From Escherichia coli (GTDB taxonomy: Bacteria > Pseudomonadota > Gammaproteobacteria > Enterobacterales > Enterobacteriaceae), in NCBI RefSeq assembly GCF_030384885.1, contig NZ_CP128615.1: a stretch of DNA of 64,000 bases. One strand, given 5' to 3'. The notes under the pieces are model-generated. The model was not told the DNA's origin, did not search any database, and saw only the letters and a program-made list of their open reading frames with translations. Positions 35,913 to 56,479 of the stretch are shown here, piece after piece. Positions within the stretch are counted from its first letter, which is position 1, and each line of letters begins with the position of its first letter. A program made the position numbers and the translations under genes.

Positions 35913-38798
35913 CTAAGGCTTTGGCCAGCGATATTCTCCGGTGAGATTGATGTGTTCCCATCCGAGCGGCGAAACATGGGCCAAGAGATCGGGCGATAGC
36001 AGCTTTCCATCGCGTTTCTGGTTTGCAACGACCTCGCCGAGCTTCATGGTGTTCCAGAAGATGATGATGGCGGCGAGCAGATTCATGCCGGCGATGCGGT
36101 AATGCTGGCCTTCGGCGGAACGGTCGCGGATTTCACCGCGGCGGTGGAAGCTGATTGCCCGCTTCAGCGCATGATGAGCTTCGCCTTTGTTGAGCCCGAT
36201 CTGGGCACGCCGTTGGAGTTCGGCATCCAGAATCCAGTCGATCATGAACAGGGTGCGCTCGACGCGACCGACTTCCCGCAGGGCTGTCGCGAGCTCGTTC
36301 TGCCGCGGATAGGAGGCGAGTTTCCGCAGAATCTGGCTTGGCGCGACGGTCCCGGCAGCAATGGTGGCGGCGATGCGCAGGATGTCGGGCCAATTGCGCT
36401 CGATCATGGCTTGGTTGACCTTTCCGCCGATCAACGCTCGCAGGTGCGCCGGGGCGGCCGACGGATTGAACGCGTAGAGCCGTTTGGATGGCAGGTCGCG
36501 GATGCGCGGAGCGAACCGGTAGCCGAGAATGGCACATGCGGCAAAGACGTGATCGGTGAAGCCGCCCGTGTCGGTGAACTGCTCGCGGATATGGCGTCCA
36601 GCATCGTTCATCAGCAGGCCATCGAGGATGTAAGGCGCTTCGCTTGCCGTTGCAGGAATCACCTGGGTTGCGAACGGCGCATATTGGTCGGAGACGTGGC
36701 TATAGGCTTTCAGGCCCGGGGTATTGCCATATTTCGCGTTGACCAGGTTCATGGCCTCACCTTGCTCTGTAGCGACGAAGAACTGTCCGTCGCTCGAAGC
36801 CGACGTGCCCATGCCCCAGAACCGGGCCATGGGTAACGCTGCCTGTGCCTCGACCACCATGGCCAGCGCCCGGTCATAGGCTTCGCCCTCGACATGCCAC
36901 CGTCCAATGCGGATCAATTCCCAGAAGGTGTGGGTGTTTGTCGCATCCGCCATTTTGCGCAAGCCGAGGTTGATCCCTTCCGCCAAGATAACGTTCATTA
37001 GCCCGATCCGGTCAGCGCAGGGTGCTCCTGTGCGCAGATGGGTGAACGCTTCGGTGAAGCCGGTCGCCGCATCCACCTCCAGCAGGAGATCGGTGATGCG
37101 CGTGGGCGGGATCTGCTTGTAGAGATCGAGCACCAGATCTTCGGCGCCTGTCGGCGCGGCGGCTTCGAGTTTCTCGATATGCAGAACGCCGTTTTCAATC
37201 GACCCGCCCGGGATCGTGCCTGCGCGAGCGGCACGGCCAAGCTCGCGCAACCGCATGTCGAGGCGAGCTTGCCGGTCTGCCAGCCATTCCTCCGGCCGCA
37301 ATGGCACAGCGAGACGACCGCCTTCCGCGATGGATTGTGCCGGAACGAGTGCGTGTTTCAGATCGCCATAGCGCCGGGACCTAGTAAGCCAGACATCTCC
37401 GGAGCGGAACGCATCGCGCAGATGGAACAGCACCGCGATCTCCCATAGGCGAGCGTCGCCAGCCCTCTGGGCCCGAAGGTGGCGATGCCATTTCGAGCTG
37501 GGCCGCAAGAAGCTGGTCATCGCGGCATCGTTCAAACCGGTACGAAGGGCCGTCACCGCTTCCAGAAGCGGCAGTGCAACGGGCGCAGCTCGCAGATCGA
37601 GCAGGCGCAACATGCGTGGAGCGTATCGGCGGAAGCGGTGATAACCGTCGAGCACATGATTGAGCGGATCGTCGGCCATGGTGGCGGTCAGCCTGGTTGC
37701 CATTGCAACAAGGGTTTTTAAGCCGTCCCACCCTGACCCACTCGCGATGACATCGCCCAGCGGCTGGCCATCATCCTGTGCATCGACCAGGGCGCCCCCG
37801 ATCTCGGCGAAGGATTTCAGGGTGTCACGCACCACCCCCGCTTCGTCTGCGACCTTTGCATGGCAAATACGCTCCGAAGCACGGTAGAGACGGCCGACGA
37901 TCCGGTCGTGGGTTTCGACCACTGCGTCGGCCAACATCGCCTGCCATTCCGAGACGCAAACAGCCAAGATCGCAAGCCGCCTGTCCTCCGGGAGATCGCG
38001 CATGCCGTCGGCATAATACCGTTCACCCTGCCTGCGCAGACGAGTCACCCGATGGGCAGGAACGCCGGCAAGCAGATCCTCGGGGAGATCGATGCGTTGC
38101 AGATATTCGAGCCGGTCGAGCAGCCGGTTGGCCGACGAAGAGTTCGAGCCAGGCTCGAACTGGCGCAGCCACACAAAACGGGTCACCCGATCATCAGCCG
38201 TCTCCTCGAGCAATGCCAGCAACTGTTCTCGGATCGACATAGGCAGCCGACTGGCGATCCTCGTCTCGATGCGTCGCTCGGCATCGACGAGAGCCGCGGC
38301 ACAAAGCCGCTCGATCGTGGATGTCGCGGGAAGGACAGTGCGGGTGCGTCGGCACTCGGCTACGAAGCGACGGGCGATATCCTCGTTCGACACCGCCATC
38401 TCGGCTTCTCGGAACAACCATTCCTTCAGCTCGCTCGCACCACGTCCGGAGAAGGTGCGGAAGCCGTAGAGCCCCCGTAACTCGGCAAGATGCTCGTGCC
38501 GTGTTTCCTCGCGGGCAGCATAGTCTACGAGATCGTCGGCACCCAGGCCAAGCTGCGCTCCGATAAATTCGATGACCTCTGCAGGGATCAGTTCGCCTGG
38601 AGCCAGCACCCGGCCGGGATAGCGCAGGACACACAATTGCAGGGCGAAGCCGAACCTGTTGTGAGCGCGCCGACGCAGCCTGATATGCCCAAGGTCTTCA
38701 TCACTCAGCGTATAGTGCTTGAGCAAATCCGTCTGTGAAGTCGGCAAGCGCAACAGCGCGTCTTTCTGCCGATCGGTTAGAGTGACGCGACGCGGCAT
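35913..38798 (-). CDS. tnpA: Tn3-family transposase TnpA (Tn5393)
   Basis: 961-aa ORF; C-terminal ...[17 protein letters not shown]. Confidence 0.9.
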   Translation of the reverse strand: MPRRVTLTDRQKDALLRLPTSQTDLLKHYTLSDEDLGHIRLRRRAHNRFGFALQLCVLRYPGRVLAPGELIPAEVIEFIGAQLGLGADDLVDYAAREETRHEHLAELRGLYGFRTFSGRGASELKEWLFREAEMAVSNEDIARRFVAECRRTRTVLPATSTIERLCAAALVDAERRIETRIASRLPMSIREQLLALLEETADDRVTRFVWLRQFEPGSNSSSANRLLDRLEYLQRIDLPEDLLAGVPAHRVTRLRRQGERYYADGMRDLPEDRRLAILAVCVSEWQAMLADAVVETHDRIVGRLYRASERICHAKVADEAGVVRDTLKSFAEIGGALVDAQDDGQPLGDVIASGSGWDGLKTLVAMATRLTATMADDPLNHVLDGYHRFRRYAPRMLRLLDLRAAPVALPLLEAVTALRTGLNDAAMTSFLRPSSKWHRHLRAQRAGDARLWEIAVLFHLRDAFRSGDVWLTRSRRYGDLKHALVPAQSIAEGGRLAVPLRPEEWLADRQARLDMRLRELGRAARAGTIPGGSIENGVLHIEKLEAAAPTGAEDLVLDLYKQIPPTRITDLLLEVDAATGFTEAFTHLRTGAPCADRIGLMNVILAEGINLGLRKMADATNTHTFWELIRIGRWHVEGEAYDRALAMVVEAQAALPMARFWGMGTSASSDGQFFVATEQGEAMNLVNAKYGNTPGLKAYSHVSDQYAPFATQVIPATASEAPYILDGLLMNDAGRHIREQFTDTGGFTDHVFAACAILGYRFAPRIRDLPSKRLYAFNPSAAPAHLRALIGGKVNQAMIERNWPDILRIAATIAAGTVAPSQILRKLASYPRQNELATALREVGRVERTLFMIDWILDAELQRRAQIGLNKGEAHHALKRAISFHRRGEIRDRSAEGQHYRIAGMNLLAAIIIFWNTMKLGEVVANQKRDGKLLSPDLLAHVSPLGWEHINLTGEYRWPKP

Positions 38799-38923
38799 AC
38801 ATGTTCCTTTTTCAAAATCTGATAGCGTTCAAGACGCTTTGTTTATGAAGCTGGTTGAGATACATTTCCAGAGGTCAATGCAATCGTGGCCGAAGCGCCG
38901 CCTCAAACCAACGTTTGTGATAC

Positions 38924-39538
38924 ATGCTGATCGGATATGCCCGCGTCTCCAAAGCCGATGGCTCGCAGTCTCTCGACCTGCAGCACGACGCCTTGCGCGC
39001 CGCAGGTGTCGAACGGGACAATATCTATGATGATCTTGCTTCCGGCGGTCGTGATGATCGCCCTGGCTTGACTGCCTGCCTCAAGTCATTGCGTGACGGC
39101 GATGTGCTGGTGGTCTGGAAGCTCGATCGCCTCGGACGATCGCTTGCCCATCTGGTCAACACGGTGAAGGAGCTGTCAGACCGCAAGATCGGCCTGCGGG
39201 TTCTGACTGGAAAGGGCGCTCAGATCGACACCACGACTGCGTCCGGTCGCATGGTGTTCGGAATCTTCGCCACCTTGGCCGAGTTCGAGCGGGATCTGAT
39301 CCGAGAGCGCACCATGGCGGGTCTCGCCTCCGCGAGAGCGCGCGGTCGCAAGGGCGGACGAAAATTCGCGCTCACCAAAGCTCAGGTGCGTCTCGCGCAA
39401 GCCGCCATGGCCCAGCGCGATACTTCAGTTTCCGATCTCTGCAAGGAACTCGGCATCGAGCGCGTCACTCTCTACCGATATGTCGGTCCCAAAGGCGAGC
39501 TCAGAGACCATGGAAAGCATGTTCTCGGACTTACGTAG
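38924..39538 (+). CDS. tnpR: serine resolvase TnpR (Tn5393)
   Basis: 204-aa ORF MLIGYARVSKADGSQSLDLQ... Confidence 0.9.
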   Translation: MLIGYARVSKADGSQSLDLQHDALRAAGVERDNIYDDLASGGRDDRPGLTACLKSLRDGDVLVVWKLDRLGRSLAHLVNTVKELSDRKIGLRVLTGKGAQIDTTTASGRMVFGIFATLAEFERDLIRERTMAGLASARARGRKGGRKFALTKAQVRLAQAAMAQRDTSVSDLCKELGIERVTLYRYVGPKGELRDHGKHVLGLT

Positions 39539-39581
39539 TGGACTTGCCTCGGTTTCGTTCCGGTCTTTTTGAGAGCATTAT

Positions 39582-39878
39582 TTGTTATCAAGGAGACCAT
39601 ATATGTCATTAAAGCATAGTGATGAATTTAAGCGTGATGCAGTTCGCATAGCACTCACTAGTGGCTTAACACGCCGTCAAGTTGCGTCAGATTTAAGTAT
39701 TGGGCTTTCCACGCTTGGGAAATGGATCGCATCAATTTCCGATGAAACTAAAATTCCTACCCAAGACACTGATCTTCTGCGTGAGAATGAACGTTTACGC
39801 AAAGAGAACCGTATCCTTCGGGAGGAGAGGGAGATATTAAAAAAGGCAGCAATATTTTTCGCAGTACAAAAGCTGTGA
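39582..39878 (+). CDS. IS1133 transposase OrfA
   Basis: 98-aa ORF with HTH. Confidence 0.8.
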   Translation: MLSRRPYMSLKHSDEFKRDAVRIALTSGLTRRQVASDLSIGLSTLGKWIASISDETKIPTQDTDLLRENERLRKENRILREEREILKKAAIFFAVQKL

Positions 39879-40732
39879 GATTTCAGTTTATTACGGATTA
39901 CCGTGGCTCTCTCTCACGTTCACGCATATGTCGTTTGATGGGCGTAACAGATCGTGGTTTACGTGCATGGAAACGCCGTCCTCCATCACTGCGCCAGCGT
40001 CGTGATCTTATACTTCTAGCGCATATACGTGAGCAGCATCGGTTGTGTTTGGGGAGCTATGGTAGGCCGCGTATGACAGAAGAGTTGAAAGCGCTGGGCC
40101 TGCAGGTTGGGCAGCGTCGGGTTGGACGTTTGATGCGCCAGAATAACATTACAGTTGTTCGAACGCGTAAATTCAAACGGACAACGGATAGTCATCATAC
40201 CTTCAACATTGCACCGAACCTATTAAAACAAGACTTTAGCGCAAGCGCACCCAACCAGAAATGGGCAGGCGATATCACTTATGTTTGGACCAGAGAAGGA
40301 TGGGTCTATCTTGCTGTTATCCTTGACCTGTATTCCCGTCGCGTGATTGGCTGGGCAACAGGTGATCGATTAAAGCAGGATCTTGCATTAAGGGCACTGA
40401 ATATGGCGTTGGCTTTACGCAAACCACCACCGGGTTGTATTCAACACACAGACCGTGGGAGCCAATATTGCGCTCATGAATATCAAAAGCTACTGCTCAA
40501 ACATCAATTGCTGCCGTCCATGAGCGGGAAAGGCAATTGTTTTGATAACTCCGCAGTAGAAAGCTTCTTTAAATCATTAAAGGCTGAGTTGATTTGGCGC
40601 AGACACTGGCAAACAAGGCGAGATATTGAGATTGCAATCTTCGAATATATAAATGGCTTTTATAATCCACGCCGAAGACATTCAACACTCGGCTGGAAAT
40701 CGCCGGTGGCATTTGAGAAAAAAGCCGCTTAA
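39875..40732 (+). CDS. IS1133 transposase OrfB (DDE/rve)
   Basis: 285-aa ORF; 4-bp overlap with orfA. Confidence 0.8.
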   Translation: MRFQFITDYRGSLSRSRICRLMGVTDRGLRAWKRRPPSLRQRRDLILLAHIREQHRLCLGSYGRPRMTEELKALGLQVGQRRVGRLMRQNNITVVRTRKFKRTTDSHHTFNIAPNLLKQDFSASAPNQKWAGDITYVWTREGWVYLAVILDLYSRRVIGWATGDRLKQDLALRALNMALALRKPPPGCIQHTDRGSQYCAHEYQKLLLKHQLLPSMSGKGNCFDNSAVESFFKSLKAELIWRRHWQTRRDIEIAIFEYINGFYNPRRRHSTLGWKSPVAFEKKAA

Positions 40733-40838
40733 AATGAGAGATAGACCGGAACACAACCGGTGCAAGTCCATAGCAACTCGTTTCTTTTCGCAGGTTGAGC
40801 CACCTCCGCGCTTCATCAGAAAACTGAAGGAACCTCCA

Positions 40839-41642
40839 TTGAATCGAACTAATATTTTTTTTGGTGAATCGCATTCTGACTGGTTGCCTGTCAGAGGCGG
40901 AGAATCTGGTGATTTTGTTTTTCGACGTGGTGACGGGCATGCCTTCGCGAAAATCGCACCTGCTTCCCGCCGCGGTGAGCTCGCTGGAGAGCGTGACCGC
41001 CTCATTTGGCTCAAAGGTCGAGGTGTGGCTTGCCCCGAGGTGATCAACTGGCAGGAGGAACAGGAGGGTGCATGCTTGGTGATAACGGCAATTCCGGGAG
41101 TACCGGCGGCTGATCTGTCTGGAGCGGATTTGCTCAAAGCGTGGCCGTCAATGGGGCAGCAACTTGGCGCTGTTCACAGCCTATCGGTTGATCAATGTCC
41201 GTTTGAGCGCAGGCTGTCGCGAATGTTCGGACGCGCCGTTGATGTGGTGTCCCGCAATGCCGTCAATCCCGACTTCTTACCGGACGAGGACAAGAGTACG
41301 CCGCAGCTCGATCTTTTGGCTCGTGTCGAACGAGAGCTACCGGTGCGGCTCGACCAAGAGCGCACCGATATGGTTGTTTGCCATGGTGATCCCTGCATGC
41401 CGAACTTCATGGTGGACCCTAAAACTCTTCAATGCACGGGTCTGATCGACCTTGGGCGGCTCGGAACAGCAGATCGCTATGCCGATTTGGCACTCATGAT
41501 TGCTAACGCCGAAGAGAACTGGGCAGCGCCAGATGAAGCAGAGCGCGCCTTCGCTGTCCTATTCAATGTATTGGGGATCGAAGCCCCCGACCGCGAACGC
41601 CTTGCCTTCTATCTGCGATTGGACCCTCTGACTTGGGGTTGA
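40839..41642 (+). CDS. strA: aminoglycoside 3''-phosphotransferase APH(3'')-Ib (streptomycin resistance)
   Basis: 267 aa from TTG start (NRTNIFFGESHSDWLPVRGGESGDFVFRRGDGHAFAKIAP...); the ORF-track start at 40653 is an upstream extension. Confidence 0.9.
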   Translation: MNRTNIFFGESHSDWLPVRGGESGDFVFRRGDGHAFAKIAPASRRGELAGERDRLIWLKGRGVACPEVINWQEEQEGACLVITAIPGVPAADLSGADLLKAWPSMGQQLGAVHSLSVDQCPFERRLSRMFGRAVDVVSRNAVNPDFLPDEDKSTPQLDLLARVERELPVRLDQERTDMVVCHGDPCMPNFMVDPKTLQCTGLIDLGRLGTADRYADLALMIANAEENWAAPDEAERAFAVLFNVLGIEAPDRERLAFYLRLDPLTWG

Positions 41643-42478
41643 TGTTCATGCCGCCTGTTTTTCCTGCTCATTGGCACGTTTCGCAACCTGTTCTCATTGC
41701 GGACACCTTTTCCAGCCTCGTTTGGAAAGTTTCATTGCCAGACGGGACTCCTGCAATCGTCAAGGGATTGAAACCTATAGAAGACATTGCTGATGAACTG
41801 CGCGGGGCCGACTATCTGGTATGGCGCAATGGGAGGGGAGCAGTCCGGTTGCTCGGTCGTGAGAACAATCTGATGTTGCTCGAATATGCCGGGGAGCGAA
41901 TGCTCTCTCACATCGTTGCCGAGCACGGCGACTACCAGGCGACCGAAATTGCAGCGGAACTAATGGCGAAGCTGTATGCCGCATCTGAGGAACCCCTGCC
42001 TTCTGCCCTTCTCCCGATCCGGGATCGCTTTGCAGCTTTGTTTCAGCGGGCGCGCGATGATCAAAACGCAGGTTGTCAAACTGACTACGTCCACGCGGCG
42101 ATTATAGCCGATCAAATGATGAGCAATGCCTCGGAACTGCGTGGGCTACATGGCGATCTGCATCATGAAAACATCATGTTCTCCAGTCGCGGCTGGCTGG
42201 TGATAGATCCCGTCGGTCTGGTCGGTGAAGTGGGCTTTGGCGCCGCCAATATGTTCTACGATCCGGCTGACAGAGACGACCTTTGTCTCGATCCTAGACG
42301 CATTGCACAGATGGCGGACGCATTCTCTCGTGCGCTGGACGTCGATCCGCGTCGCCTGCTCGACCAGGCGTACGCTTATGGGTGCCTTTCCGCAGCTTGG
42401 AACGCGGATGGAGAAGAGGAGCAACGCGATCTAGCTATCGCGGCCGCGATCAAGCAGGTGCGACAGACGTCATACTAG
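41642..42478 (+). CDS. strB: aminoglycoside 6-phosphotransferase APH(6)-Id (streptomycin resistance)
   Basis: 278 aa MFMPPVFPAHWHVSQPVLIADTF...; overlaps strA stop. Confidence 0.9.
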   Translation: MFMPPVFPAHWHVSQPVLIADTFSSLVWKVSLPDGTPAIVKGLKPIEDIADELRGADYLVWRNGRGAVRLLGRENNLMLLEYAGERMLSHIVAEHGDYQATEIAAELMAKLYAASEEPLPSALLPIRDRFAALFQRARDDQNAGCQTDYVHAAIIADQMMSNASELRGLHGDLHHENIMFSSRGWLVIDPVGLVGEVGFGAANMFYDPADRDDLCLDPRRIAQMADAFSRALDVDPRRLLDQAYAYGCLSAAWNADGEEEQRDLAIAAAIKQVRQTSY

Positions 42479-42584
42479 ATATCAAGCGACTTCTCCTATC
42501 CCCTGGGAACACATCAATCTTACCGGAGAATATCGTTGGCCAAAGCCTTAGCGTAGGATTTCGCCCTCTCCCGCAAACGACCCC

Positions 42585-43486
42585 ATAGCCTCCGCAACCT
42601 GACCATCGTAGTCACGCAGCGTCAGTGAACCCCCGAACAGCTGTTTTACCCGGTACATCGCCGTTTCCGCTATCGAGCGACGGTTGTAATCTGTTGTCCA
42701 TTTCCACCGCGCATTACTCCCGGTCATTCGCTGATTAGCCACTGCACGGTTACGGTCTGCATATTCACCGGGCCAGTAACCCGCACCTTTTCGGGGAGGG
42801 ATAAGCGCGCTGATTTTCTTACGCCGCAGTTCATCGTGACAGAGCCGGGTGTCGTAAGCGCCGTCTGCCGATGCTGCCCTGATTTTTCTGTGAGTCTGCC
42901 GGATAAGACCCGGGAAGGCTTCTGAGTCCGTCACATTGTTCAGCGACAGGTCTGCACAGATGATTTCATGTGTGTTGCTGTCAACTGCCAGATGCAACTT
43001 TCGCCATATACGACGGCGTTCCTGGCCATGCTTTTTGACTTTCCACTCGCCTTCACCAAAGACCTTCAGCCCGGTGGAATCAATCACCAGATGCGCGATT
43101 TCACCCCGGGTGAACGTTTTGAAACTGACGTTAACCGACTTTGCCCGCCTGCTGACACAGCTGTAATCCGGGCAGCGTAGCGGAACGTTCATCAGAGAAA
43201 AAATGGAATCAATAAAGCCCTGCGCAGCGCGCAGGGTCAGCCTGAATACGCGTTTAATGACCAGCACAGTCGTGATGGCAAGGTCAGAATAGCGCTGAGG
43301 TCTGCCTCGTGAAGAAGGTGTTGCTGACTCATACCAGGCCTGAATAGCTTCATCATCCAGCCAGAAAGTTATGGAGCCACGGTTGATGAGGGCTTTATTG
43401 TAGGTGGGCCAGTTGGTTATTTTGAACTTTTGCTTTGCCACGGAACGGTCTGCGTTGTCGGGAAGATGCGTGATCTGATCCTTCAA
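42585..43486 (-). pseudogene. IS903-like transposase, C-terminus replaced by read-through into Tn5393 IR
   Basis: ORF identical to the other copies up to ...VAEAM, then diverges (GSFAGEGEILR) at the Tn5393 junction. Confidence 0.8.
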
Positions 43487-43857
43487 CTCAGCAAAAGTTC
43501 GATTTATTCAACAAAGCCCATTCAGTCCTCAATTTGTGCATTTTTTAAACGAAAAAAGGGTGTCTAATACGGTGAAATCATAGTATTACCAAAGTAATAA
43601 ATAAAAAGTTATTTAAATCAGTAATTTAGATTTGATTTGTAATACCTGGGTAATACCGCAGCATGGCTAAATTTTGTTTTTTTTCTTTTAAATCAGTGCG
43701 ATAGCGTGATTTATCACGCTGCGTTAGGTGTATAGCAGGTTAAGGGATAAAAAATCATCTTTTTTTGGTAGGGCGATCTCCGTAGGTTAAGGGGCATTTG
43801 GCTAAAAAGCGTCCTATTCTTTGATGGTCATGCTTGCATGACCATCTGAGCAACCAA

Positions 43858-44006
43858 AAACTACAGATAAACTACAGATAAACTACAAAAAACGTTTTGC
43901 CTTAGTGTTGTAAGACTACAAATAGACTACAATAAAACTACAAATAAACTACAAAAAACGTGACAGACTACAAATAGACTACAATAAAACTACAGATAAA
44001 CTACAA
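43858..44006. repeat. array of ~11-bp ACTACA(A/G)ATA direct repeats (iteron- or centromere-like)
   Basis: at least 12 copies of (A/G)ACTACA(A/G)AT(A) in 150 bp, preceded by a perfect palindrome GATGGTCATG-cttg-CATGACCATC at 43821-43846. Confidence 0.6.
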
Positions 44007-44066
44007 AACTCGATTGACCCCTTCTTACGAGTGTTGTAGAGTCATTTTCATACAACGGAGGGGGTT

Positions 44067-44246
44067 ATGAATAAACCAGCAGATCTGAAACCCCGCAACT
44101 TATCGGCTGCTGTCAGATTGCGCCTAAATGAAATCGAGAACTGGCTGGACAGAGGGCTAACGCGGCATGAAATTGCTGAAATCCTCGACAGCGAATACAG
44201 CTTTTCGGTAACAGCCAAAGGGCTTGAGATGGATGGCACTGTATAG
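44067..44246 (+). CDS. small hypothetical protein (59 aa), possible DNA-binding regulator
   Basis: strong RBS GGAGGGGG 6 bp upstream; MNKPADLKPRNLSAAVRLRLNEIENWLDRGLTRHEIAEILD...; below the ORF-track length cutoff. Confidence 0.45.
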   Translation: MNKPADLKPRNLSAAVRLRLNEIENWLDRGLTRHEIAEILDSEYSFSVTAKGLEMDGTV

Positions 44247-44465
44247 AACGCGGCAAAACCGAAAAAATGTATTGCACAATACGCATGATAAGAGTAGCGC
44301 GAAGGGTGCAGCGGAAAGTGTATTGCACAATACACAACCGTCTGAGCCTGAAGTGCAGGAAAGTAAAAAAGCAGAGAGTCCCGGCATTATTGATAAAGAA
44401 TTCTTCAAGAAAATCGGTGAGAATTTCGACCCTAAGAAGTTCAACAAAAAATTCTGAGGTGATTT

Positions 44466-44540
44466 ATGAAAGTAGCGGTAATTAATTACAGTGGCAGTGT
44501 TCGTAAAACCTTAATTTCATCTTACCTGTTAGCCCCGCGC
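44466..44540 (+). pseudogene. 5' fragment of a gene (MKVAVINYSGSVRKTLISSYLLAPR), truncated by IS903 copy 3
   Basis: RBS GAGGTGA then ATG; the N-terminus resembles the start of a ParA-like NTPase but the Walker A is not canonical. Confidence 0.35.
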
Positions 44541-45597
44541 GGCTTTGTTGAATAAATCAGATTTCGGGTAAGTCTCCCCCGTAGCGGGTTGTGTTTTCAG
44601 GCAATACGCACGCTTTCAGGCATACCTGCTTTCGTCATTTTGTTCAGCGCTCGTACCAGGGCCATAGCCTCTGCAACCTGACCATCGTAGTCACGCAGTG
44701 TCAGTGAACCTCCGAACAGCTGTTTTACCCGGTACATCGCCGTTTCCGCTATCGAGCGACGGTTGTAATCTGTTGTCCATTTCCACCGCGCATTACTCCC
44801 GGTCAGCCGCTGATTCGCAACAGCACGGTTACGGTCTGCATATTCACCGGGCCAGTAACCCGCGCCTTTTCGGGGCGGGATAAGCGCGCTGATTTTCTTA
44901 CGCCGCAGTTCATCGTGACAGAGTTGGGTGTCGTAAGCGCCGTCTGCCGATGCTGCCCTGATTTTTCTGTGAGTCTGCCGGATAAGACCCGGGAAGGCTT
45001 CTGAGTCCGTCACATTGTTCAGCGACAGGTTTGCACAGATGATTTCATGTGTGTTGCTGTCAACTGCCAGATGCAACTTTCGCCATATACGACGGCGTTC
45101 CTGGCCATGCTTTTTGACTTTCCATTCGCCTTCACCAAAGACCTTCAGCCCGGTGGAATCAATCACCAGATGCGCGATTTCACCCCGGGTGAACGTTTTG
45201 AAACTGACATTAACCGACTTTGCGCGCTTGCTGACACTGGTGTAATCCGGGCAGCGCAACGGAACATTCATCAGTGTAAAAATGGAATCAATAAAACCCT
45301 GTGCAGCCCGCAGGGTCAACCTGAACACGCGTTTAATGACCAGAACGGTGGTGATGGCGAGATCAGAATAGCGCTGAGGTCTTCCCCGTGATGAAGGCGT
45401 TGCCGACTCATACCAGGCCTGAATAGCTTCATCATCCAGCCAGAAAGTTATGGAGCCACGGTTGATGAGGGCTTTATTGTAGGTGGGCCAGTTGGTTATT
45501 TTGAACTTTTGCTTTGCCACGGAATGGTCTGCGTTGTCGGGAAGATGCGTGATCTGATCCTTCAACTCAGCAAAAGTTCGATTTATTCAACAAAGCC
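44541..45597 (-). mobile_element. IS903-like copy 3, 1057 bp, intact
   Basis: 18-bp IRs at both ends; same orientation as copy 2. Confidence 0.9.
44597..45565 (-). CDS. IS903-like DDE transposase
   Basis: 322-aa ORF nearly identical to copy 1. Confidence 0.9.
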   Translation of the reverse strand: MKDQITHLPDNADHSVAKQKFKITNWPTYNKALINRGSITFWLDDEAIQAWYESATPSSRGRPQRYSDLAITTVLVIKRVFRLTLRAAQGFIDSIFTLMNVPLRCPDYTSVSKRAKSVNVSFKTFTRGEIAHLVIDSTGLKVFGEGEWKVKKHGQERRRIWRKLHLAVDSNTHEIICANLSLNNVTDSEAFPGLIRQTHRKIRAASADGAYDTQLCHDELRRKKISALIPPRKGAGYWPGEYADRNRAVANQRLTGSNARWKWTTDYNRRSIAETAMYRVKQLFGGSLTLRDYDGQVAEAMALVRALNKMTKAGMPESVRIA

Positions 45598-46099
45598 GTC
45601 TGTGTTGTAAAATGGCGCCGAAAGCCCGGCGTAGCCGGTTGCCGGGCTATAAATTCTGCCACCCTACCCCCTGCCCTGATTAGCCTTAACTCGCGAACAG
45701 CAATGAAGAAGTCAAAGTAATCCCTTTTAACCCCGGTGAGCGGGCTTTACGGCGTTTACGACGTAAAGGGCGTGATTTCCGGGGCCTAAGCGGCGGCAGC
45801 TTGCTGCTGACGCTTAGGGGGATGTTCATCAACTATTTCAGCGACACCAGGGAACTTAACACGGTAGCTGCAAAGCCCTAATCCCGCTCACCGCCACGCA
45901 GCTGCCGTACGTCCCCCACGGGGGTGCGCAGTGCTGCGCGCGGGAACGGCGGCCCGTCTGCGGGACGCGGCGCCGTACTGCGCGTTAGCGGCCGCACGCG
46001 GCCGGTTACGGGGGACACTCCGCCATACGACCAGCGACCCGCTGAGCTGCACAATCCACAGATAACACAAGCTACATACATGTCGATATGGGAATCGGC

Positions 46100-46660
46100 C
46101 CACCTTGCCGGGCGCCGGTGCCGTGTGGAAATCCGCCCACCTTGCCGCGCGCCGGTGCCGTGTGGGAATCCGCCCACCTTGCCGCGCGCCGGTGCCGTGT
46201 GGGAATCCGCCCACCTTGCCGGGCGCCGGTGCTGTGTGGAAATCCGCCCACCTTACCGGGCGCCGGTGCTGTGTGGAAATCCGCCCATCTTGCCGGGCGC
46301 CGGTGCCGTGTGGGAATCCGCCCACCTTACCGGGCGCCGGTGCCGTGTGGGAATCCGCCCACCTTACCGGGCGCCGGTGCCGTGTGGGAATCCGCCCACC
46401 TTACCGGGCGCCGGTGCTGTGTGGAAATCCGCCCACCTTGCCGCGCGCCGGTGCCGTGTGGGAATCCGCCCACCTTGCCGCGCGCCGGTGCCGTGTGGGA
46501 ATCCGCCCACCTTGCCGGGCGCCGGTGCTGTGTGGAAATCCGCCCACCTTACCGGGCGCCGGTGCTGTGTGGAAATCCGCCCATCTTGCCGGGCGCCGGT
46601 GCCGTGTGGGAATCCGCCCACCTTACCGGGCGCCGGTGCTGTGTGGAAATCCGCCCATCT
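46100..46660. repeat. tandem array of about 15 copies of a 37-bp repeat (putative Rep_3 iterons)
   Basis: unit CTTGCCG(G/C)GCGCCGGTGC(C/T)GTGTGG(G/A)AATCCGCCCAC; lies downstream of the truncated repA fragment. Confidence 0.7.
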
Positions 46661-46708
46661 TCATGACAAAAATTTGTCAAATGACAGGCTCATGTGTGCT
46701 GATTTATG

Positions 46709-47011
46709 TCAGACGGGATTTTGCTTATCAATTATTGAGAACAGAAATTTTCCTGAATCATCAATACTATACTTAGCAAGTAAAGGTGTTTTCTCATTTA
46801 TCTGCTTGAGTGCAGGATCAAGGAAAGATCGTTTCAACTCTGCCAAGTTCTTCTGCTGGGATTCCGGTAAGACGAAACGGTCATTTAACCAAGCATGAGT
46901 AGTAACCCATAAGCCTGAAGATTTGAATTGAGCAAGACTTTCATAAAGGCGGATCGTCCGGGGATTTCGAAGACTGCCACAATCGCGGAGCGAGTAGGTG
47001 GTGAACTGGTT
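46709..47011 (-). pseudogene. Rep_3-family replication initiator, C-terminal ~100 codons only (truncated by IS1)
   Basis: translation ...NQFTTYSLRDCGSLRNPRTIRLYESLAQFKSSGLWVTTHAWL... aligns with the C-terminus of the intact RepA at 54593-55459. Confidence 0.8.
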
Positions 47012-47026
47012 GGTAATGACTCCAAC

Positions 47027-47530
47027 TTACTGATAGTGTTTTATGTTCAGATAATGCCCGATGACTTTGTCATGCAGCGCCACCGATTTTGAGAACGACA
47101 GTGACTTCCTGCCCAGCCTTGCCAGATGCTGCCTCAGATTCTGGTTATGCCGCTCAATTCGCTGCGTATATCGCTTGCTGATAACGTGCAGTTCTCCCTT
47201 CAGGCGGGATTCATAAAGCGGCCAGCCATCCGTCATCCATACCACGACCTCAAAGGCCGACAGCAGGCCCGGAAGACGCTCCAGCGTGGCCAGAGTACGC
47301 TCACCAAAGACGCGTGCCACCACCGTCCTGCACATCCTGCCATAGGCGTAAAATAACCAGCGCTGACGTGATTTAGCCCCGACGTAGCCCCACTGTTCGT
47401 CCATTTCCGCGCAGACAATGACGTCACTGCCCGGTTGTATGCGTGAGGTTACCGACTGCGGTCTGAGTTTTTTAAGTGACGTAAAATCGTGTTGAGGCCA
47501 ACGCCCATAATGCGGGCGGTTGCCCGGCAT
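47027..47530 (-). CDS. insB: IS1 InsB
   Basis: 167-aa ORF. Confidence 0.85.
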
Positions 47531-47724
47531 CCAACGCCATTCATGGCCATATCAATGATTTTCTGGTGCGTACCGGGCTGAGAGGCGGTGTAAGTGAACT
47601 GTAGCTGCCATGTTTTACGGCAGTGAGAGCAGAGATAGCGCTGATGTCCGGCAGTACTTTTACCGTTACGCACCACGCCTTCAGTAGCTGAGCAGGAGGG
47701 ACAACTGATGGAGATGGAAGCCAC
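47449..47724 (-). CDS. insA: IS1 InsA
   Basis: 91-aa [14 protein letters not shown]... Confidence 0.85.
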
Positions 47725-47789
47725 TGGAGCACCTCAAAGACACCATCGTACACTAAATCAGTAAGTTGGCACCATTATCCGGCAGGCGA

Positions 47790-49700
47790 TCTGGATTATC
47801 GTCACGCTGTTAAATATGTCGCGGTAGGGATACCCGTTACCGGATACCCCCCGCACAGATCCCGGCGTGCGCGATTTACGCACCGGGCTCCTGCCTCGGG
47901 TGTCTGGCGGTGAACCGCTCCACAGGCCATGGATGAAGAACCCGAACCCTTGGTAGCCATGCGGCTGCCAGTTTGTTTGCTTTCGTCCAGGTCGTATCAT
48001 CCTTCTGGCTCCTGCGCCTGAGCGCCCGGCGCCAGAGGTTTGTTACGTGTGTCCTGAACTTCTGCATGGTGGGGAAGTTGCCCGGTACCGAGTGATAGTT
48101 CAGGTATCCCTGAACCACTCTCCTGAGCCATTTTCCCTGTTCGGGGATTGAGTAATGCCAGCGCCTTCGCAGACCGTCTTTGATGGCTTTCAGAGTTGCC
48201 GTCATCCGATCCCGGCGGGTCTTTCGTATCAGCATGAACCTGCCGTTGCGATCTTTCCCGCTGATGTGCGTGAACCCGAGGAAGTTGAACGTTTCTGGTT
48301 TGCCTTTTCCCCTGATGGCACGGTTTTCGGCAGCGAAGCGGCCGAACTCCATCAGACGGGTTTTCTCCGGGTGAACCGTGAGTCCGAACTCCCTCAGTCT
48401 GCGCTGCATGGCTATACGGAAGCGCCGGGCATCGTATCGTTTGTCGAACCCGATGACGATGTCATCGGCGTATCTGACCATTACCACATTGCCTGTGGCA
48501 TAGCGACGTCGCCACTGATGCGCCCACAGATCGAAGACGTAGTGGAGGTATATGTTTGCCAGCAGCGGTGAGATGACCGCACCCTGTGGGGTGCCTTCCT
48601 CCGTTGCTCGCCATTGACCCTCCTCCAACGTCCCGGCTGTGAGCCACTTACGTATGAGCCTGATTACGCTCCGGTCGCCGATCCGATGCTCTGTGAACCT
48701 GATCAGCCATTCGTGGCTCACCCTGTCGAAGAACTGACTGATGTCGGCATCCAGTACCCAGTTTACGTTAGTGCGTACCAGCCCTGTGGCCAGTGCGTCC
48801 AGTGCATCGTGCTGGCTTCGCCCGGGTCTGAACCCGTATGAGAACCCCATAAAGTCGTTTTCATAGACTGCGTTCAGGATTTTCACCAGCGCATACTGGA
48901 CGATCTTGTCCTCCAGCGAGGCGATGCCGAGCGGGCGTTGTTTTCCATCCGCTTTTGGGATGTAGTGACGCCTGCCGGGCTGCGCCCTGTAGCTGCCCTA
49001 ATGTAGCCTCCGGTGCAGATCTGTTATGTTGTTCTTCATGTTTCCGGCGTAGTCCATCCACCTGATGCCATCCACTCCGGCGGCCGCTTTCCTGCTCAGG
49101 GAGAGGAATGCGGCTTCCAGTGCTTCGACTGTCAGCAGGTGGAACAATGCTGTAAACCGTTCTTTCTTCCGCTGCTTCGCAGCTTCCCGCACGCGTGACA
49201 GCCTCTGTGACATGCTTTCCCGGCTCTGTGTCCGGCGCATGTGTGGCTGTTCCGCGTTCCCCTTGGCCCCGCTCCTTCGCTCCACTGACTCCGCTCCTTT
49301 CGGGTTGTTCGCCTGCTTCGCCGCTACTATGAGCGAGTCCGACTTCTCCTCTCCGTACATCACCGGCTATGACTCCTCGTCTTCCCGGTGCGGGCCGTCT
49401 CCGACACTGGCAGATGGTCAGAGGGGAGATCTCCCGGTTCCCGCGTAGAGATCGTATTGACATGCCAGGGTCTCAGACCCCGCCGGGTCCATGTGGCACT
49501 CGCAGTATCGCACCCTATGATGTTGCCTTCCGTTAACAGTACAACGTCGGCACCCGGTAATTTAATATACATTTCGTGGCTCAATGGCTGGCCTGTCAAC
49601 ACCCCTGTCAACGCTTCGCCCCATACCTCGCGGTATGCAACGCATGACTCGGGGACCTTGTGGATTGCTGGTCCTTCAATGGTCGGGGACTTTCACCCCT
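47790..49700 (-). mobile_element. bacterial group II intron (boundaries approximate)
   Basis: intron-encoded RT/maturase ORF; domain V-like hairpin in the reverse complement of 47845-47880; 5' boundary not pinned. Confidence 0.6.
47876..49363 (-). pseudogene. group II intron reverse transcriptase/maturase, interrupted by one in-frame TAG
   Basis: two same-frame ORFs (48998-49363 and 47876-48886) separated by a TAG at 48998-49000; RT motifs ...GVDGIRWMDY..., ...FSYGFRPGRSQHDAL..., ...YADDIVIG... Confidence 0.75.
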
Positions 49701-49727
49701 TGATCTCTACCGGTCTCCCGGTGAACA

Positions 49728-49743
49728 CTGTATGTATAACCAG
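49728..49743 (+). promoter_or_regulatory. LexA (SOS) box upstream of umuD
   Basis: CTGTATGTATAACCAG (CTGT-N8-CCAG, one mismatch to the CTG-N10-CAG consensus) 26 bp upstream of the umuD start. Confidence 0.6.
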
Positions 49744-49768
49744 TAAAATTAGAGTGTCAGGAGGAAAG

Positions 49769-50200
49769 ATGAAACTACAACTTTTCAGCACCGGGAAAGA
49801 ACTCCCGCCACAGGCCCATCCATTGTTTGCCGATCTGGCCAGCTGCGGTTTTCCCAGCCCTGCTGCTGACTATGTCGAGTCCGATCTGGATCTCCATGAT
49901 TACTGCATACGGCATCCGAGCGCGACGTACTACCTGCGTGCCAGCGGAGACAGCATGGCCGACGGCAGTCTGTACAATGGCGATCTGCTGGTTGTGGACA
50001 GTGCTGAAAAGCCGCGGCACGGCGATATCGTTGTCGCCAGCATGCAGGGGGAGTTTACGGTGAAACGGCTTCTGCTGACGCCGCGACTGACGCTGCAGCC
50101 CATGAATGCCTCCTGGTCGCCGATTTATCCTGATCCCGACGAGCTGGATATCTTTGGCGTCGTCACGCATATCATCCACCGCCCGAGGGAGATGTACTGA
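49769..50200 (+). CDS. umuD: UmuD-like SOS mutagenesis protein (LexA-like peptidase S24)
   Basis: 143 aa from [10 protein letters not shown]... with RBS AGGAGG; Ser-Lys dyad region (SGDSM...K); the ORF-track start at 49388 is an upstream extension. Confidence 0.85.
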
Positions 50201-51471
50201 TGTTTGCCCTGGCCGATGTGAACAGCTTCTATGCCAGCTGTGAACGTGTTTTCCGCCCGGATTTGAAAGGAAAGCCGATAGTCGTCCTGAGCAACAACGA
50301 CGGGAATGTAATCGCTCGCAGTGCCGAGGCGAAGCCCTGGATCAAAATGGAAACTCCGTGGTTTCAGATAAAAAACGAAAGATACCCGGAAAAAATATAT
50401 GCGTTTTCAAGTAACTATGAACTTTATGCCTCGATGTTGGCGCGCGTGATGAACAGCCTGGAGGAACTGGCCCCCAGAGTGGAACAGTATTCAATTGATG
50501 AGATGTTCCTCGATTTGACCGGCGTGGAGCACTGTATGGAGCTTGAGGACTTCGGCCGGCAGCTGCGTCAGCACGTGTATGACTGTACCCACCTGACCAT
50601 TGGCGTGGGCGCCGGACCAACGAAGACCCTCGCAAAATCAGCCCAGTGGGCCTCAAAAGAGTGGAAACAGTTTCGTGGCGTACTTGCTCTGACCAGGGGA
50701 AATCCGCAGAGAACGCGGAAACTGCTTTCACTGCAGCCGGTTGAAGAAATCTGGGGGGTGGGTAACCGTATTGCACGCAAGCTGAATGTACTGGGCATTA
50801 AGACCGCGCTCGATCTCGCCCTGACGAACCCGGCCTTCATCCGCAAAAATTTTTCTGTGGTCCTTGAGCGAACGGTACGGGAACTGAACGGGGAAAGCTG
50901 CCTTTCGCTTGAGGAAGCCCCTCCGACGAAACAGCAAATTGTCTGCAGCCGCAGTTTTGGCGTGAAGATCACGGAGTACGAGTCACTCCGTCAGGCTATC
51001 TGTCAGCACGCAGAGCGGGCCTCTGAAAAACTGCGTAAAGAGCACCAGTATTGCCGGCATATTTCCGTTTTCATCAAAACGTCTCCGTTCGCCATTAAAG
51101 AGCCTTACTACGGCAACGTGGCTACGGAAAAACTTCTTACACCCACTCAGGACACCAGGGACATCATTGCAGCCGCTACAACGGCTCTGGAGCGTATCTG
51201 GAGGGATGGGCACCGGTATGCCAAAGCCGGAGTTATGCTGAATGACTTCACCGGCTCCGGCGTTTCGCAGCTGCAGCTGTTCGACGAACGCCCGCCACGC
51301 CCTTACAGTGCTGAGCTGATGAAGGTTCTGGACGGGATCAACAACTCAGGGCTGGGTAAAGTATGGTTTGCGGGGCGGGGTATTGCCCCGGAATGGCAGA
51401 TGAAACGGGAGATGCTTTCTCCTGCTTATACGACACGATGGTCAGATATTCCTTCAGCGAAACTGGCGTAA
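50200..51471 (+). CDS. umuC: UmuC-like Y-family DNA polymerase V catalytic subunit
   Basis: 423-aa [44 protein letters not shown]... Confidence 0.9.
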
Positions 51472-51481
51472 AACTTTGGCG

Positions 51482-51550
51482 ATTTCACCTTGAAATTCTC
51501 AGCCTAAACTGCCTAATTACAATAAGTTAGATGTGAAATCGCCATGGCGA
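51482..51550. promoter_or_regulatory. putative P1-type parS centromere (heptamer ATTTCAC and hexamer TCGCCA boxes)
   Basis: GATTTCACC...GTGAAATCGCCATGGCGAAAT immediately downstream of parB. Confidence 0.5.
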
Positions 51551-51552
51551 AA

Positions 51553-52530
51553 TTATTGACTCAAATTTCTGTCAAGGACCTCGTTGATAGCCTTGTCCAG
51601 TTCATCCTGAATCACTTTTGACATACGGCTAAACTCATAAGTCAGCGTACGCCCTTTCACACGCTTACGCGCGAACTTGTCCTTTTCTTCAAAAGACCAG
51701 AGTGGGGAAACCACTGACTTTTCCTTGGGAGATGGATCTATCAATGCCTGAGATGCCTGAGAAATCAGCTTCAGTATACTGGCTTTCTGTTCGTCTTCTG
51801 GTCGCTCGCCTTCACTCAAAATTGCATCGAGCTGAGCTGATACAGACTGAATGAGTTCTTCAGGCGTTAATCCCTTTTCACTGAGTTTTTCATTAACTTC
51901 TAAAAGAAGTTTATAGTCACTAAACGATAGCTCCGACTGAACCGGGAACAGAGAAATCAAGTCTTGCGGTACGGCCGCCGCCTGCAGCGCCCTGGTAACT
52001 TTAGCTTGAGATAACCCCTCCAGTTCAGCAATTTCCTTTTGATTAAATCCGGACTCTTTAAGAGCGATCAATCTCAGGCCAATCTCCCGAAGATTATGTT
52101 CTTTAGCTGTCTGGATATCTTTAGCCAGTTGGCGAGCTTCATCAGCTGATAAATGCTCTTCGGTAACCATTACATCAAGGCCTGTACGGACAAAAATTGC
52201 TGAGGCTCGCCGTCTTGAACCATCCAGTATCTCAATCCTTTCACTTTGCTTAATACCAATACAGGGAAAGAACTGCTGAAACTTAATCGTCTGGATAATG
52301 GATTTCAGGGATTCCCTGGTCAGTGCAAGTTGATCTCTTCCGTTGTTTTCCTGGTTTACGAAGGTCTTACTTTCAACTTCAGATGCAGGCACCCGAACAA
52401 ACCTGAACGTTACCTTCCTGCCGGTTTTTAAGGTAAATACCTGGCTTCTACCGGTGTCCGTCATTTCCGCAATTGACGCCTGGGTATTTAACTGTCTGCC
52501 GATGGTTTTTCTTTTCTCATTCGACATCAC
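51553..52530 (-). CDS. parB: ParB/SopB-family partition protein
   Basis: 325-aa ORF downstream of parA, overlapping its stop. Confidence 0.8.
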   Translation of the reverse strand: MMSNEKRKTIGRQLNTQASIAEMTDTGRSQVFTLKTGRKVTFRFVRVPASEVESKTFVNQENNGRDQLALTRESLKSIIQTIKFQQFFPCIGIKQSERIEILDGSRRRASAIFVRTGLDVMVTEEHLSADEARQLAKDIQTAKEHNLREIGLRLIALKESGFNQKEIAELEGLSQAKVTRALQAAAVPQDLISLFPVQSELSFSDYKLLLEVNEKLSEKGLTPEELIQSVSAQLDAILSEGERPEDEQKASILKLISQASQALIDPSPKEKSVVSPLWSFEEKDKFARKRVKGRTLTYEFSRMSKVIQDELDKAINEVLDRNLSQ

Positions 52531-53732
52531 ATACCTCCGTTAGTACGAATGAACTCGATGCGATCAAAGACTGCCTTCGCAAAGTCTTCCGCTGCTGATT
52601 TTGCGCTTTTTAGTGCCTCTGTACTTCCATCATAGGTTGCTGGATTTGCTGAAATAACTGTGTCAAAAGTCTCCCCACAACGTTCGAAACCATCCAGTCT
52701 TGGCAGAACCATGTCTAGCATATCGGCACCGAAAACCTCTTTGGCCTGACTATGGCAAATTTTGTGATCAGACTTGTTCAGGATCTTGGACATGAAGCCG
52801 ACATTACCGATGAGATTGCAGGTGTGCCCATCCATTTCGATGGAATCTATGAGGGCAGGGAGGCTGGCCACAAACTTCAGGGAAGAATGAAAATCAACCG
52901 TCGCCGGTGGAAGAGGGGTCAACATCAGGTCTGCCGCCCCAATGCAGTTTTTCAGGAACGCATCAAGGTGAGGACCACTATCAAGGAAAATAAAGTCGTA
53001 GTCATGCTGGAGCTTGTCGATAATGTTCTCTTTAAGCACCGCATGAATATTTTTCCCTGGCAGATGTTCTTCACACAATCCCTTCCAGCCTTCAGCAAGG
53101 AATGCATCGTCAATGGAAGCGGGGATTACATCAACACCAGGGATAATAGACGGTACTATAAAATCGGAAAGTAATTCTTCACGAGACACGTTCTGGAGCA
53201 TGGCCTGAGCAGCCGTATTTTCAACCAAGCCCACTGAATTCTCATGGCTCAGGAACATTGTCAGAGATGCCTGCGGATCGAAATCGATGGCCAGAATACG
53301 CAGGTCTTCGAACAGAAGCTGAGGATGAGCTCGAAAAGCATGTGATAATGAAGCGGTAGAAACTGTCTTGGAACCACCACCTTTAAGATTACATACAAAA
53401 ATCGTAAAGGCTTTATCGAAGCGATCCCTGTACTTCGGTACTTTACGATGGTTATACAGATCGATGACATTCTGAATCGTCATCGCGTATTTCATCGTAT
53501 TACCAGAAGGTTTCTTTTTAAAAATGTAGCCACCGGCTTCCATTTCGGACACAGCATACTCAACACTGCCTTTACTGAGCTTAGGCAGCTTATACAGAGC
53601 GGCTTTGCTGTATTCCTGATAGAACTCGGTAAGCTTCAATTCCTCTTTTTGCTGTCGGATACTTTCGCTCAAAGATGTCAGAAGCTTACCTGCACGTGTA
53701 GCGACTTTCCGTAACTGCTCAATATTGTCCAT
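52527..53732 (-). CDS. parA: ParA/SopA-family type Ia partition ATPase
   Basis: 401-aa ORF; deviant Walker A (CNLKGGGSKTVSTASL) after an N-terminal DNA-binding extension. Confidence 0.85.
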   Translation of the reverse strand: MDNIEQLRKVATRAGKLLTSLSESIRQQKEELKLTEFYQEYSKAALYKLPKLSKGSVEYAVSEMEAGGYIFKKKPSGNTMKYAMTIQNVIDLYNHRKVPKYRDRFDKAFTIFVCNLKGGGSKTVSTASLSHAFRAHPQLLFEDLRILAIDFDPQASLTMFLSHENSVGLVENTAAQAMLQNVSREELLSDFIVPSIIPGVDVIPASIDDAFLAEGWKGLCEEHLPGKNIHAVLKENIIDKLQHDYDFIFLDSGPHLDAFLKNCIGAADLMLTPLPPATVDFHSSLKFVASLPALIDSIEMDGHTCNLIGNVGFMSKILNKSDHKICHSQAKEVFGADMLDMVLPRLDGFERCGETFDTVISANPATYDGSTEALKSAKSAAEDFAKAVFDRIEFIRTNGGM

Positions 53733-54125
53733 TTATCACCTCATGACGTTTTTTGTCATTTTGAACAAAAAGTGTCATGTTGCAAGAAAAAAATCATATT
53801 GTTTTGATTTCGCTCTCAACAGAAGGGGGATGAAGCTCGACGGGCGTGCTACTAAATCACACTGCAGCAACACGCAGACGCACTTTTGACCATCAACAGC
53901 AACTCATACAAAAGGGCTTTGAGAAAGGTATTCAACTTGCAAGACAGGAGAGTCATTCAGAAGGATTCTGATTTTAGTTACGACCAGTGCAATGCTGAGC
54001 CTTATGTATCAGCGCTCGCCGCAGCCATGTAACCGAGCGTAGCGAGCGAACTGGCGAGGAAGCGAAGAGGAACCGTTCCGGCAGATAGCTCTTACGCTCA
54101 GCACAAGAAGAGTTTTCCATCCTCT

Positions 54126-54545
54126 GTGGGAAACAGGTCAACTTTAATGGACGCTCCGGACTATGGGAAACAGGTCAACTTCGCGGACGGCCCGGACTAT
54201 GGGAAACAGGTCAACTTCACGGGCGGCCGGGAGTGTGGGGAACAGGTCAACTTCGCGGACGGCCCGGATTATGGGAAACAGGTCAACTTCGCGGGCGGCC
54301 GGGACTGTGGGAAACAGGTCAACTTTGCAGACGGCCCGGACTGTGGGAAACAGGTCAACTTCGCGGGCGGCCGGGAGTGTGGGGAACAGGTCAACTTCGC
54401 GGACGGCCCGGACTAAGGGAAACAGGTCAGCTTCTCGGACGGCCCGGACTATGGGAAACAGGTCAACTTCTCGGACGGTCGGGAGTGTGGGAAACAGGTC
54501 AAGTTAGGCAAGCACTATGGGAAACACAGCAAGTTCAGTATCCCC
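54126..54545. repeat. tandem array of about 11-12 copies of a 36-bp repeat (putative repA iterons / copy-control array)
   Basis: unit TATGGGAAACAGGTCAACTTCGCGGACGGCCCGGAC; immediately downstream of repA. Confidence 0.7.
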
Positions 54546-54592
54546 CCATATGTCAGCAACAAACTAAGGGGGGAGGAAATAAAAATTACAGA

Positions 54593-55459: not shown

Positions 55460-55700
55460 AGCTTGTTGATGCGTATCCCATAGCTTGTTGACACAAAACC
55501 CACTGATACGTGATTAATTTCCCATATTATGTTTACCAGTTGCCCATACAGGCCCCCTCTCAGGCCGCACTGTACGCGGCTTTCAGGCTCCCTAAAAGAT
55601 GTAAAATAAAGAAAAAGAATAAAAAAGTACTTTATAAAAATATGCCCGTGGATAAGTGGATAACCCCGAGGGGAGGTGATTTTTCAGGCATTGAGCGTAA
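55460..55700. other. putative oriV region (DnaA boxes, short direct repeats, AT-rich tract)
   Basis: TTATCCACA at 55414-55422, TGGATAAGTGGATAA near 55640, two copies of TCCCATAGCTTGTTGA at 55460-55500. Confidence 0.5.
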
Positions 55701-56221: not shown

Positions 56222-56479
56222 ATGAAACTTGAAACTATACAGATAGATAATACCGTAAGGAGTGGTCTTAATTCTTTCACTGACGGGGTGATTATTCGTG
56301 ATACAAAGGTATTGATCACGCTCAATCTCCCGGATGGACAGAAAACCACTATTGAGGGGGAATGGCGGCATATGTCGGACGCCAACAGGTTGTCAGAACG
56401 TATTACGATGCTTCAGCATGCGATCTATGAGCAGTATGAGGAATACAGAGCAGATATTCCCGTCAGCTGGTCCAGATAA
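56222..56479 (+). CDS. hypothetical protein (85 aa)
   Basis: RBS AGGAGG then MKLETIQIDNTVRSGL...; no recognisable motif. Confidence 0.5.
   Translation: MKLETIQIDNTVRSGLNSFTDGVIIRDTKVLITLNLPDGQKTTIEGEWRHMSDANRLSERITMLQHAIYEQYEEYRADIPVSWSR

Follow-up and report, generated by a model that had tools for sequence, protein, structure and literature searches.

A truncated replication initiator gene and a long array of tandem repeats lie side by side at 46089–47011 in the 64-kb window analyzed here (the whole stretch of Escherichia coli DNA under study), on a molecule that also carries an intact Rep gene at 54593–55459. The initial annotation described this locus as a second Rep_3 replicon destroyed by IS1 and suggested that its orphan iterons might still be bound in trans by the related initiator. 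The locus raises the questions of which replicon it came from, what it has retained, and on which plasmid, if any, its repeats could act. Our analyses indicate that it is very probably a nonfunctional remnant of an IncN1 replicon of the R46/pKM101/pCU1 type that an IncR plasmid carries as passenger DNA.

The Truncated Gene Is the 3′ End of an IncN1 repA

The minus strand of 46709–47011 contains an open frame of 100 amino acids, which ends with a stop codon at 46709, 47 bp from the repeat array. As had been noticed initially, this frame is homologous to the C terminus of the resident Rep; its alignment to residues 191–287 of the 54593–55459 ORF shows 61% identity (E = 6e-46). In Pfam, the fragment matches Rep3_C (the WH2 domain) with E = 8.5e-10 and also the final 25 positions of Rep3_N (the WH1 domain). 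Thus, the truncated ORF does align with Rep_3 proteins and retains sequence from both domains of the family. In NCBIfam, the best family for the fragment and for the intact IncR Rep alike is RepE, with both scoring below its cut-off.

The locus is not, however, a sister of the resident replicon. By tblastn, the fragment is 99% identical at the amino acid level to IncN1 RepA (R46 WP_000359513, 239 aa; NC_003292; pKP96), and by blastn it shows 98.3–98.9% nucleotide identity to intact IncN repA genes. Compared with R46 repA, it has synonymous changes in four codons and a single amino acid difference (V/L). It corresponds to nucleotides 418–720 of the 720-nt gene and to amino acids 140–239 of 239, which comprise the tail of WH1 and the whole of WH2. 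The reading of the locus as a Rep_3-family remnant that is cut by IS1 and followed by iterons is thus correct, but the remnant belongs to IncN1. The 5′ 417 nucleotides of repA, its promoter and the 22-bp iterons that accompany it in IncN plasmids were not found anywhere in the 64-kb window.

The retained frame contains no in-frame ATG, GTG or TTG before a TTG at 46846, and because it has no in-frame start codon we regard it as a pseudogene. Expression of a Rep fragment or of an InsB–RepA fusion was considered and rejected, since an in-frame insB stop codon is located five codons upstream of the IS1/ΔrepA junction and no start codon follows it. The ΔrepA frame, taken as 46709–47029, is shared with that of IS1 insB, such that a fusion would arise only through read-through of the stop codon; this sharing of frame is probably a coincidence.

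The Retained Array Is Composed of Intact IncN1 Iterons

The array, which corresponds to the "iteron I" array of IncN1 plasmids, spans 46089–46661 on the plus strand. Tandem Repeats Finder reports 15.5 copies with 93% matches, no indels and a score of 957, that is, 15 full 37-bp units and a half unit. These values agree with the roughly 15 tandem copies of 37 bp described at the outset, though the array begins at 46089 and not at 46100. Each unit is built around an 18-bp core, TGGRAATCSGCCCAYCTT, a candidate binding site for IncN RepA, which occurs 16 times with 0 mismatches, always on the plus strand and at an exact spacing of 37 bp. Shuffled versions of the window contained on average 0.38 core matches when up to 3 mismatches were permitted. 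The 16 cores conform to the IncN1 iteron core TGGRAATCCGCCCACCTT, and their variants are those of R46, pBK13048, pKP96 and pM159-1.2. Indeed, the two dominant variants, TGGGAATCCGCCCACCTT and TGGAAATCCGCCCACCTT, and also CCCATCTT, are all present beside intact repA genes in these four plasmids.

When the units are classified by type, they follow the order ABCDEFGGH-BCDEF-H, and part of the array therefore appears to stem from a recent internal duplication of 8 units (296 bp). Length differences between arrays consist of whole units. Cores were counted directly in 8 loci, as BLAST spans (60 plasmids) are ambiguous where the array is longer than the query. These direct counts gave 9 and 16 cores in orphan arrays of IncR-typed plasmids, 24 in the orphan array of an IncY plasmid that has pieces of IncR backbone, and 7, 16, 37 and 39 cores in working IncN arrays. 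Because the orphan lengths lie within the working range of 7–39 cores, they give no sign of decay or of runaway expansion. The idea that orphan arrays have become longer than working ones under relaxed constraint was rejected for the same reason, as working arrays reach 37–39 cores. The description of the locus as a decaying relic thus does not fit the array, which is without visible decay and has the core variants of working IncN arrays. An Rfam scan of 43000–56500 found no structured RNA except the group II intron described below, and scans of the relic for promoters and terminators returned nothing above shuffle level.

Insertion Sequences Bound the Relic on Both Sides

On its right side, the relic ends at an IS1X3 element (47012–47779, minus strand, 768 bp) that has IS1 terminal repeats at both ends and insA/insB ORFs at 47027–47724 and that adjoins the IncR backbone, specifically the group II intron/retA. 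The rep frame is interrupted exactly at 47011/47012, which confirms the IS1 cut recorded at 47012. The cut is not, however, that of a simple insertion. The 9-bp flanks of IS1X3 are unlike each other (GAACTGGTT versus CGGCAGGCG), so the element lacks a target duplication, and the window nowhere contains the 5′ portion of the gene.

The left boundary is formed by IS903B, a member of the IS5 family (44541–45597, minus strand), with terminal repeats GGCTTTGTTGAATAAATC at 44541 and, inverted, at 45580–45597. Its 322-aa transposase ORF is located at 44597–45565, and the element is annotated as IS903B in pEFER. It also lacks a target duplication, the flanking 9-mers being GCCCCGCGC and GTCTGTGTT. Because neither element has a target duplication and the repA 5′ part, its promoter and the upstream iterons are all missing, the edges of the relic are best explained by IS-mediated deletion or recombination and not by clean insertion.

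Homology to R46 begins at repA nucleotide 418, spans the 37-bp array and ends ~220 bp past it, at window position 45868. The segment distal to the iterons (45868–46088), which in R46 lies toward resP, is 84% identical to R46 and ~92% identical to other IncN plasmids; it has neither an AT-rich stretch nor, with up to 1 mismatch allowed, a DnaA box. Between this segment and IS903B lies a piece of non-IncN DNA of ~290 bp (45598–45890) that is 95.6% identical to K. pneumoniae CP052554.1. In Klebsiella plasmids, its counterpart is found ~1.1 kb downstream of an FIA(HI1)-type repE, and the piece has been described as a small IncFIB-derived segment (PMC11047700). This GC-rich piece contains hairpin-forming repeats and occurs in ~2,000 plasmids of Klebsiella; its final 23 bp (45868–45890) overlap the IncN homology and may mark the crossover point.

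The Origin Module of the IncN Replicon Is Missing

In R46 (locus L004), the region upstream of repA contains a DnaA box at 3286, an AT-rich stretch at 3291–3394 and five 22-bp iterons at 3394–3499. This module is absent from the relic and from the entire window. The relic lacks an AT-rich stretch and, even with 1 mismatch allowed, a DnaA box; both elements are found upstream of rep in R46 and in the resident IncR replicon. Thus, when compared with a working IncN1 replicon (R46/pKM101/pCU1/pKP96), the relic shares the repA 3′ end, the 37-bp units, their core and their spacing from the stop codon, but is without codons 1–139, the promoter, the five 22-bp iterons, the AT-rich stretch and the DnaA box. 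The sequence beyond its array, 84–92% identical to that of IncN1 plasmids, is joined to non-IncN DNA. As it contains neither an initiator gene nor an origin-opening module, the relic cannot replicate on its own.

The IncN and IncR replicons are arranged alike, with a DnaA box, an AT-rich stretch, short iterons, rep and a long downstream iteron array in that order. Mini-F (ori2/incB, repE, incC) and P1 (oriR, repA, incA) follow the same plan, and the finding that both Rep proteins have RepE as their best NCBIfam family fits such a layout. By analogy with these plasmids, the retained array corresponds in its position to the copy-control/incompatibility locus and not to the origin. Like mini-F incC and P1 incA, it consists of long, putatively initiator-binding repeats downstream of rep and apart from the upstream origin iterons. 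In contrast to those loci, its cognate initiator is absent from the molecule, and any effect of the array could thus fall only on a separate IncN plasmid.

Taken together, these features suggest a history in which IncN and IncR plasmids, or fragments of both, would have been joined, after which deletion or recombination mediated by IS1X3 and IS903B would have eliminated the origin module of the IncN replicon together with the promoter and codons 1–139 of repA. What would have been left over are the last 100 repA codons and the downstream "iteron I" array, whose length would then drift by unequal crossing-over while the relic remained neutral cargo for the host IncR replicon. The earlier proposal of a cointegrate relic thus named the right sort of history.

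The Relic Corresponds to Region N of IncR Plasmids

Plasmids matching the window are typed as IncR by PLSDB, and to the right of IS1 the window contains the usual IncR backbone of group II intron/retA, umuDC, parBA and repB with 36-bp iterons. A 1,432-bp match to the relic region is 99.2% identical in E. fergusonii pEFER and 100% identical in K. pneumoniae OW849432. Indeed, the structure is an ordinary and known one that has already been published. Oliva et al. 2022 named it "region N" and reported on 74 IncR plasmids (PMC9412624), and a second paper describes this complex together with its small IncFIB-like piece (PMC11047700). Our window contains the parts of region N, namely IS903B, an IncN repA remnant with 37-bp iterons, and IS1X3, in that order and just upstream of retA, which is the same place as in pST1023, pEFER and others. 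The only difference is in the number of units, with 15.5 here, 24.3 in pST1023 (PMC9412624) and 9 to 24 cores elsewhere. The locus thus has an IncN1-like initiator sequence (99% amino acid identity over the retained 100 aa) and all features of region N, but it does not have a complete, expressible repA (nucleotides 418–720 only, with no in-frame start) or an upstream origin module, and we therefore class it as IncN-derived DNA and not as a second replicon.

Segments 99–100% identical to this ΔrepA occur in roughly 600–800 PLSDB plasmids. Among 5,426 complete E. coli genomes, the IS1X3/ΔrepA junction is present in 155 and an intact IncN repA 5′ region in 91. A query with the IncN repA 5′/upstream region (R46 L004:3380–3990) matched 337 E. 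coli genomes at ≥99% identity, 91 of them with ≥80% coverage; the remaining matches are presumably other truncated IncN replicons, e.g., the IS26-cut form of F33 plasmids. That form is an independent IncN ΔrepA with 30–31 iterons (PMC6052338). It resembles the relic in being an initiator-less IncN1 "iteron I" array on a plasmid that uses another replicon, but differs in that the cut is made by IS26 at the repA 5′ end with most of the gene kept, the backbone is IncFII and there are 30–31 units. The region N junction is also found beyond IncR plasmids, in a chromosome record of E. coli D4 (NZ_CP010143.1), and strains 2017-19-1CC and 15.03CC each harbor two plasmids with the junction.

With its IncN iterons and 303 bp of IncN repA, the relic can mislead replicon typing or the calling of hybrid plasmids. 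Assemblies are likely to collapse at the tandem array, and plasmids that are otherwise identical are likely to differ there in length. The relic is also a marker of past IncN–IncR recombination that aids in tracing IncR lineages.

The Resident IncR Replicon

The intact IncR initiator gene, repB (54593–55459, minus strand), encodes a protein with Rep3_N and Rep3_C domains that is 57% identical to IncN RepA over 234 aa. Alignment with the 239-aa IncN RepA suggests that translation probably starts at Met49 (55315), in which case the first 48 codons of the ORF would be origin/operator DNA. The 288-aa rep ORF, which is the PGAP length in pEFER, begins inside an iteron-like site at 55441–55458. The IncR origin module (55441–55663, minus strand) comprises iteron-like sites to 55441, an AT-rich stretch at 55589–55647 and two DnaA-box-like sites at 55647–55663. 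The IncR iterons, which are not part of the relic, are located at 54127–54535 on the plus strand and consist of 36-bp units with 11–12 cores of the form TGGGRAACAGGTCARSTT; 10.4 copies have been reported for the IncR 36-bp array (PMC9412624).

Could the Orphan Array Still Act?

The effect proposed in the initial annotation, in which the resident initiator binds the orphan array and thereby tunes IncR copy number, appears very improbable. The two initiators are indeed related (57% overall and 61% in the C-terminal 100 aa), the arrays have the same orientation and are 7.5 kb apart, and 13 of the 18 core positions are common to both iterons, including both ends (TGGGAA...CA.CTT), from which weak binding by IncR RepB is conceivable. 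The iteron cores are nevertheless distinct. They differ at 5/18 positions, with CC..C in IncN and GT..A in IncR at positions 11, 12 and 15; these three positions are invariant in 15/16 IncN and 10/11 IncR array cores, and each exception is at position 15. Neither core pattern matches the other array within 3 mismatches, and accordingly no 37-bp unit contains TGGGRAACAGGTCARSTT at that threshold. Moreover, the size of the orphan array varies from 9 to 24 cores across relic carriers, and IncR is an incompatibility group of its own that often shares cells or molecules with IncN (PMC7707992, PMC6353027), with intact IncR and IncN1 replicons coexisting on one plasmid (PMC6353027). Given the distinct cores, the failure to cross-match, the variable array size and this coexistence, the sequences make cross-regulation of IncR unlikely, and the trans binding by the related RepA is left without support. 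A role for the relic as a helper-dependent origin, at or near which IncN RepA supplied in trans would initiate replication of the IncR plasmid, is extremely improbable. The relic does offer 16 candidate RepA binding sites, and pCU1 is stated to have several mapped origins, one of them RepA dependent, according to the title of Zoueva 2003 as cited. However, the canonical module lies upstream of repA and is deleted here, leaving the relic with neither a DnaA box (within 1 mismatch) nor an AT-rich unwinding stretch.

An action on IncN plasmids is a different matter. The 37-bp iterons of pCU1 are reportedly dispensable for replication and express incompatibility. It is plausible that the orphan array could titrate IncN RepA in trans and so cause IncN incompatibility: when an IncN plasmid enters the cell, the 16 sites would titrate or handcuff its RepA and thereby depress replication of that plasmid. 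RepA binding and copy-number control by the 37-bp repeats are mentioned, as cited from Papp & Iyer 1995 and Krishnan & Iyer 1990, in two later reports (PMC6052338, PMC9412624). Whether selection has maintained the array as a weapon against IncN plasmids, soaking up their RepA and blocking their establishment, is a further step, and we consider it quite improbable. Its cores are intact (16 exact), the relic is widespread in PLSDB plasmids and in the 155 E. coli genomes noted above, initiator-less IncN arrays arose at least two times (with the IS1X3 junction here and with IS26 in F33 plasmids), and the one co-resident IncN plasmid found also has an IncX1 replicon that might rescue it. This wide spread could also reflect selection instead of hitch-hiking, and a more specific form of the argument, in which titration of IncN RepA keeps incoming IncN plasmids from displacing nonconjugative IncR plasmids and, as an independent case, F33 plasmids, seems to us unlikely. 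Against selection, the copies are 99–100% identical, which indicates recent spread, so that their conservation says nothing on selection and hitch-hiking with the IncR backbone suffices; in addition, array length varies freely. At least one strain also combines the relic with an intact IncN replicon, showing that coexistence is possible. In E. coli M159-1 (NZ_CP058721.1, NZ_CP058720.1), one plasmid, typed as IncY, carries a 24-core relic together with retA and a fragment of umuD, and another plasmid is IncN+IncX1 with an intact RepA and 39+5 iterons; the second, IncX1, replicon could be what permits this coexistence. By chance, the junction and an intact IncN repA would be expected together in ~2.6 of the E. 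coli genomes, and among the 60 matches listed of each set there was one co-occurrence against ~0.7 expected, which gives no sign of exclusion, although the comparison is of low power. That initiator-less relics form easily when cointegrates shed one replicon is a simpler reading than usefulness. Whether orphan iteron arrays influence plasmid cohabitation is a fair question, though the mechanism, titration of an initiator by its binding sites, is textbook knowledge and not new.

Other Features of the Window

To the left of IS903B, stbA is split over two frames, with 44067–44246 matching positions 1–50 of the StbA_2 profile and 44224–44457 matching positions 50–123. In a plasmid whose stbA is annotated as intact, the corresponding span is 4 bp shorter, and the split appears from the sequence to result from a frameshift or from an error in sequencing. 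Ahead of stbA lie two blocks of 11-bp repeats (43858–43887 and 43915–44007), which form a candidate StbA-binding site. On the other side of the relic, the group II intron occupies 47780–49693, with its 3′ side adjoining IS1X3 at 47779/47780 and its RT/maturase at ~47876–49363. Rfam identified domains D1–D4 at 49468–49693 and gave no D5/D6 match in the intron; a D5-like hairpin is visible by eye near 47810–47850.

The window also contains, as does pEFER, a type 1 BREX phage-defense system (6326–22366) with BrxL, PglZ, PglX, BrxC and DUF1788/DUF1819/WYL-type genes and, in the same region, a 587-aa ORF at 14774–16537. A resistance region at 25874–43486 carries tet(A)/tetR with a Tn3-family transposase (Tn1721-like), aph(3″)-Ib/aph(6)-Id (strAB), a second Tn3-family transposase with a resolvase, and IS3- and IS5-family elements.
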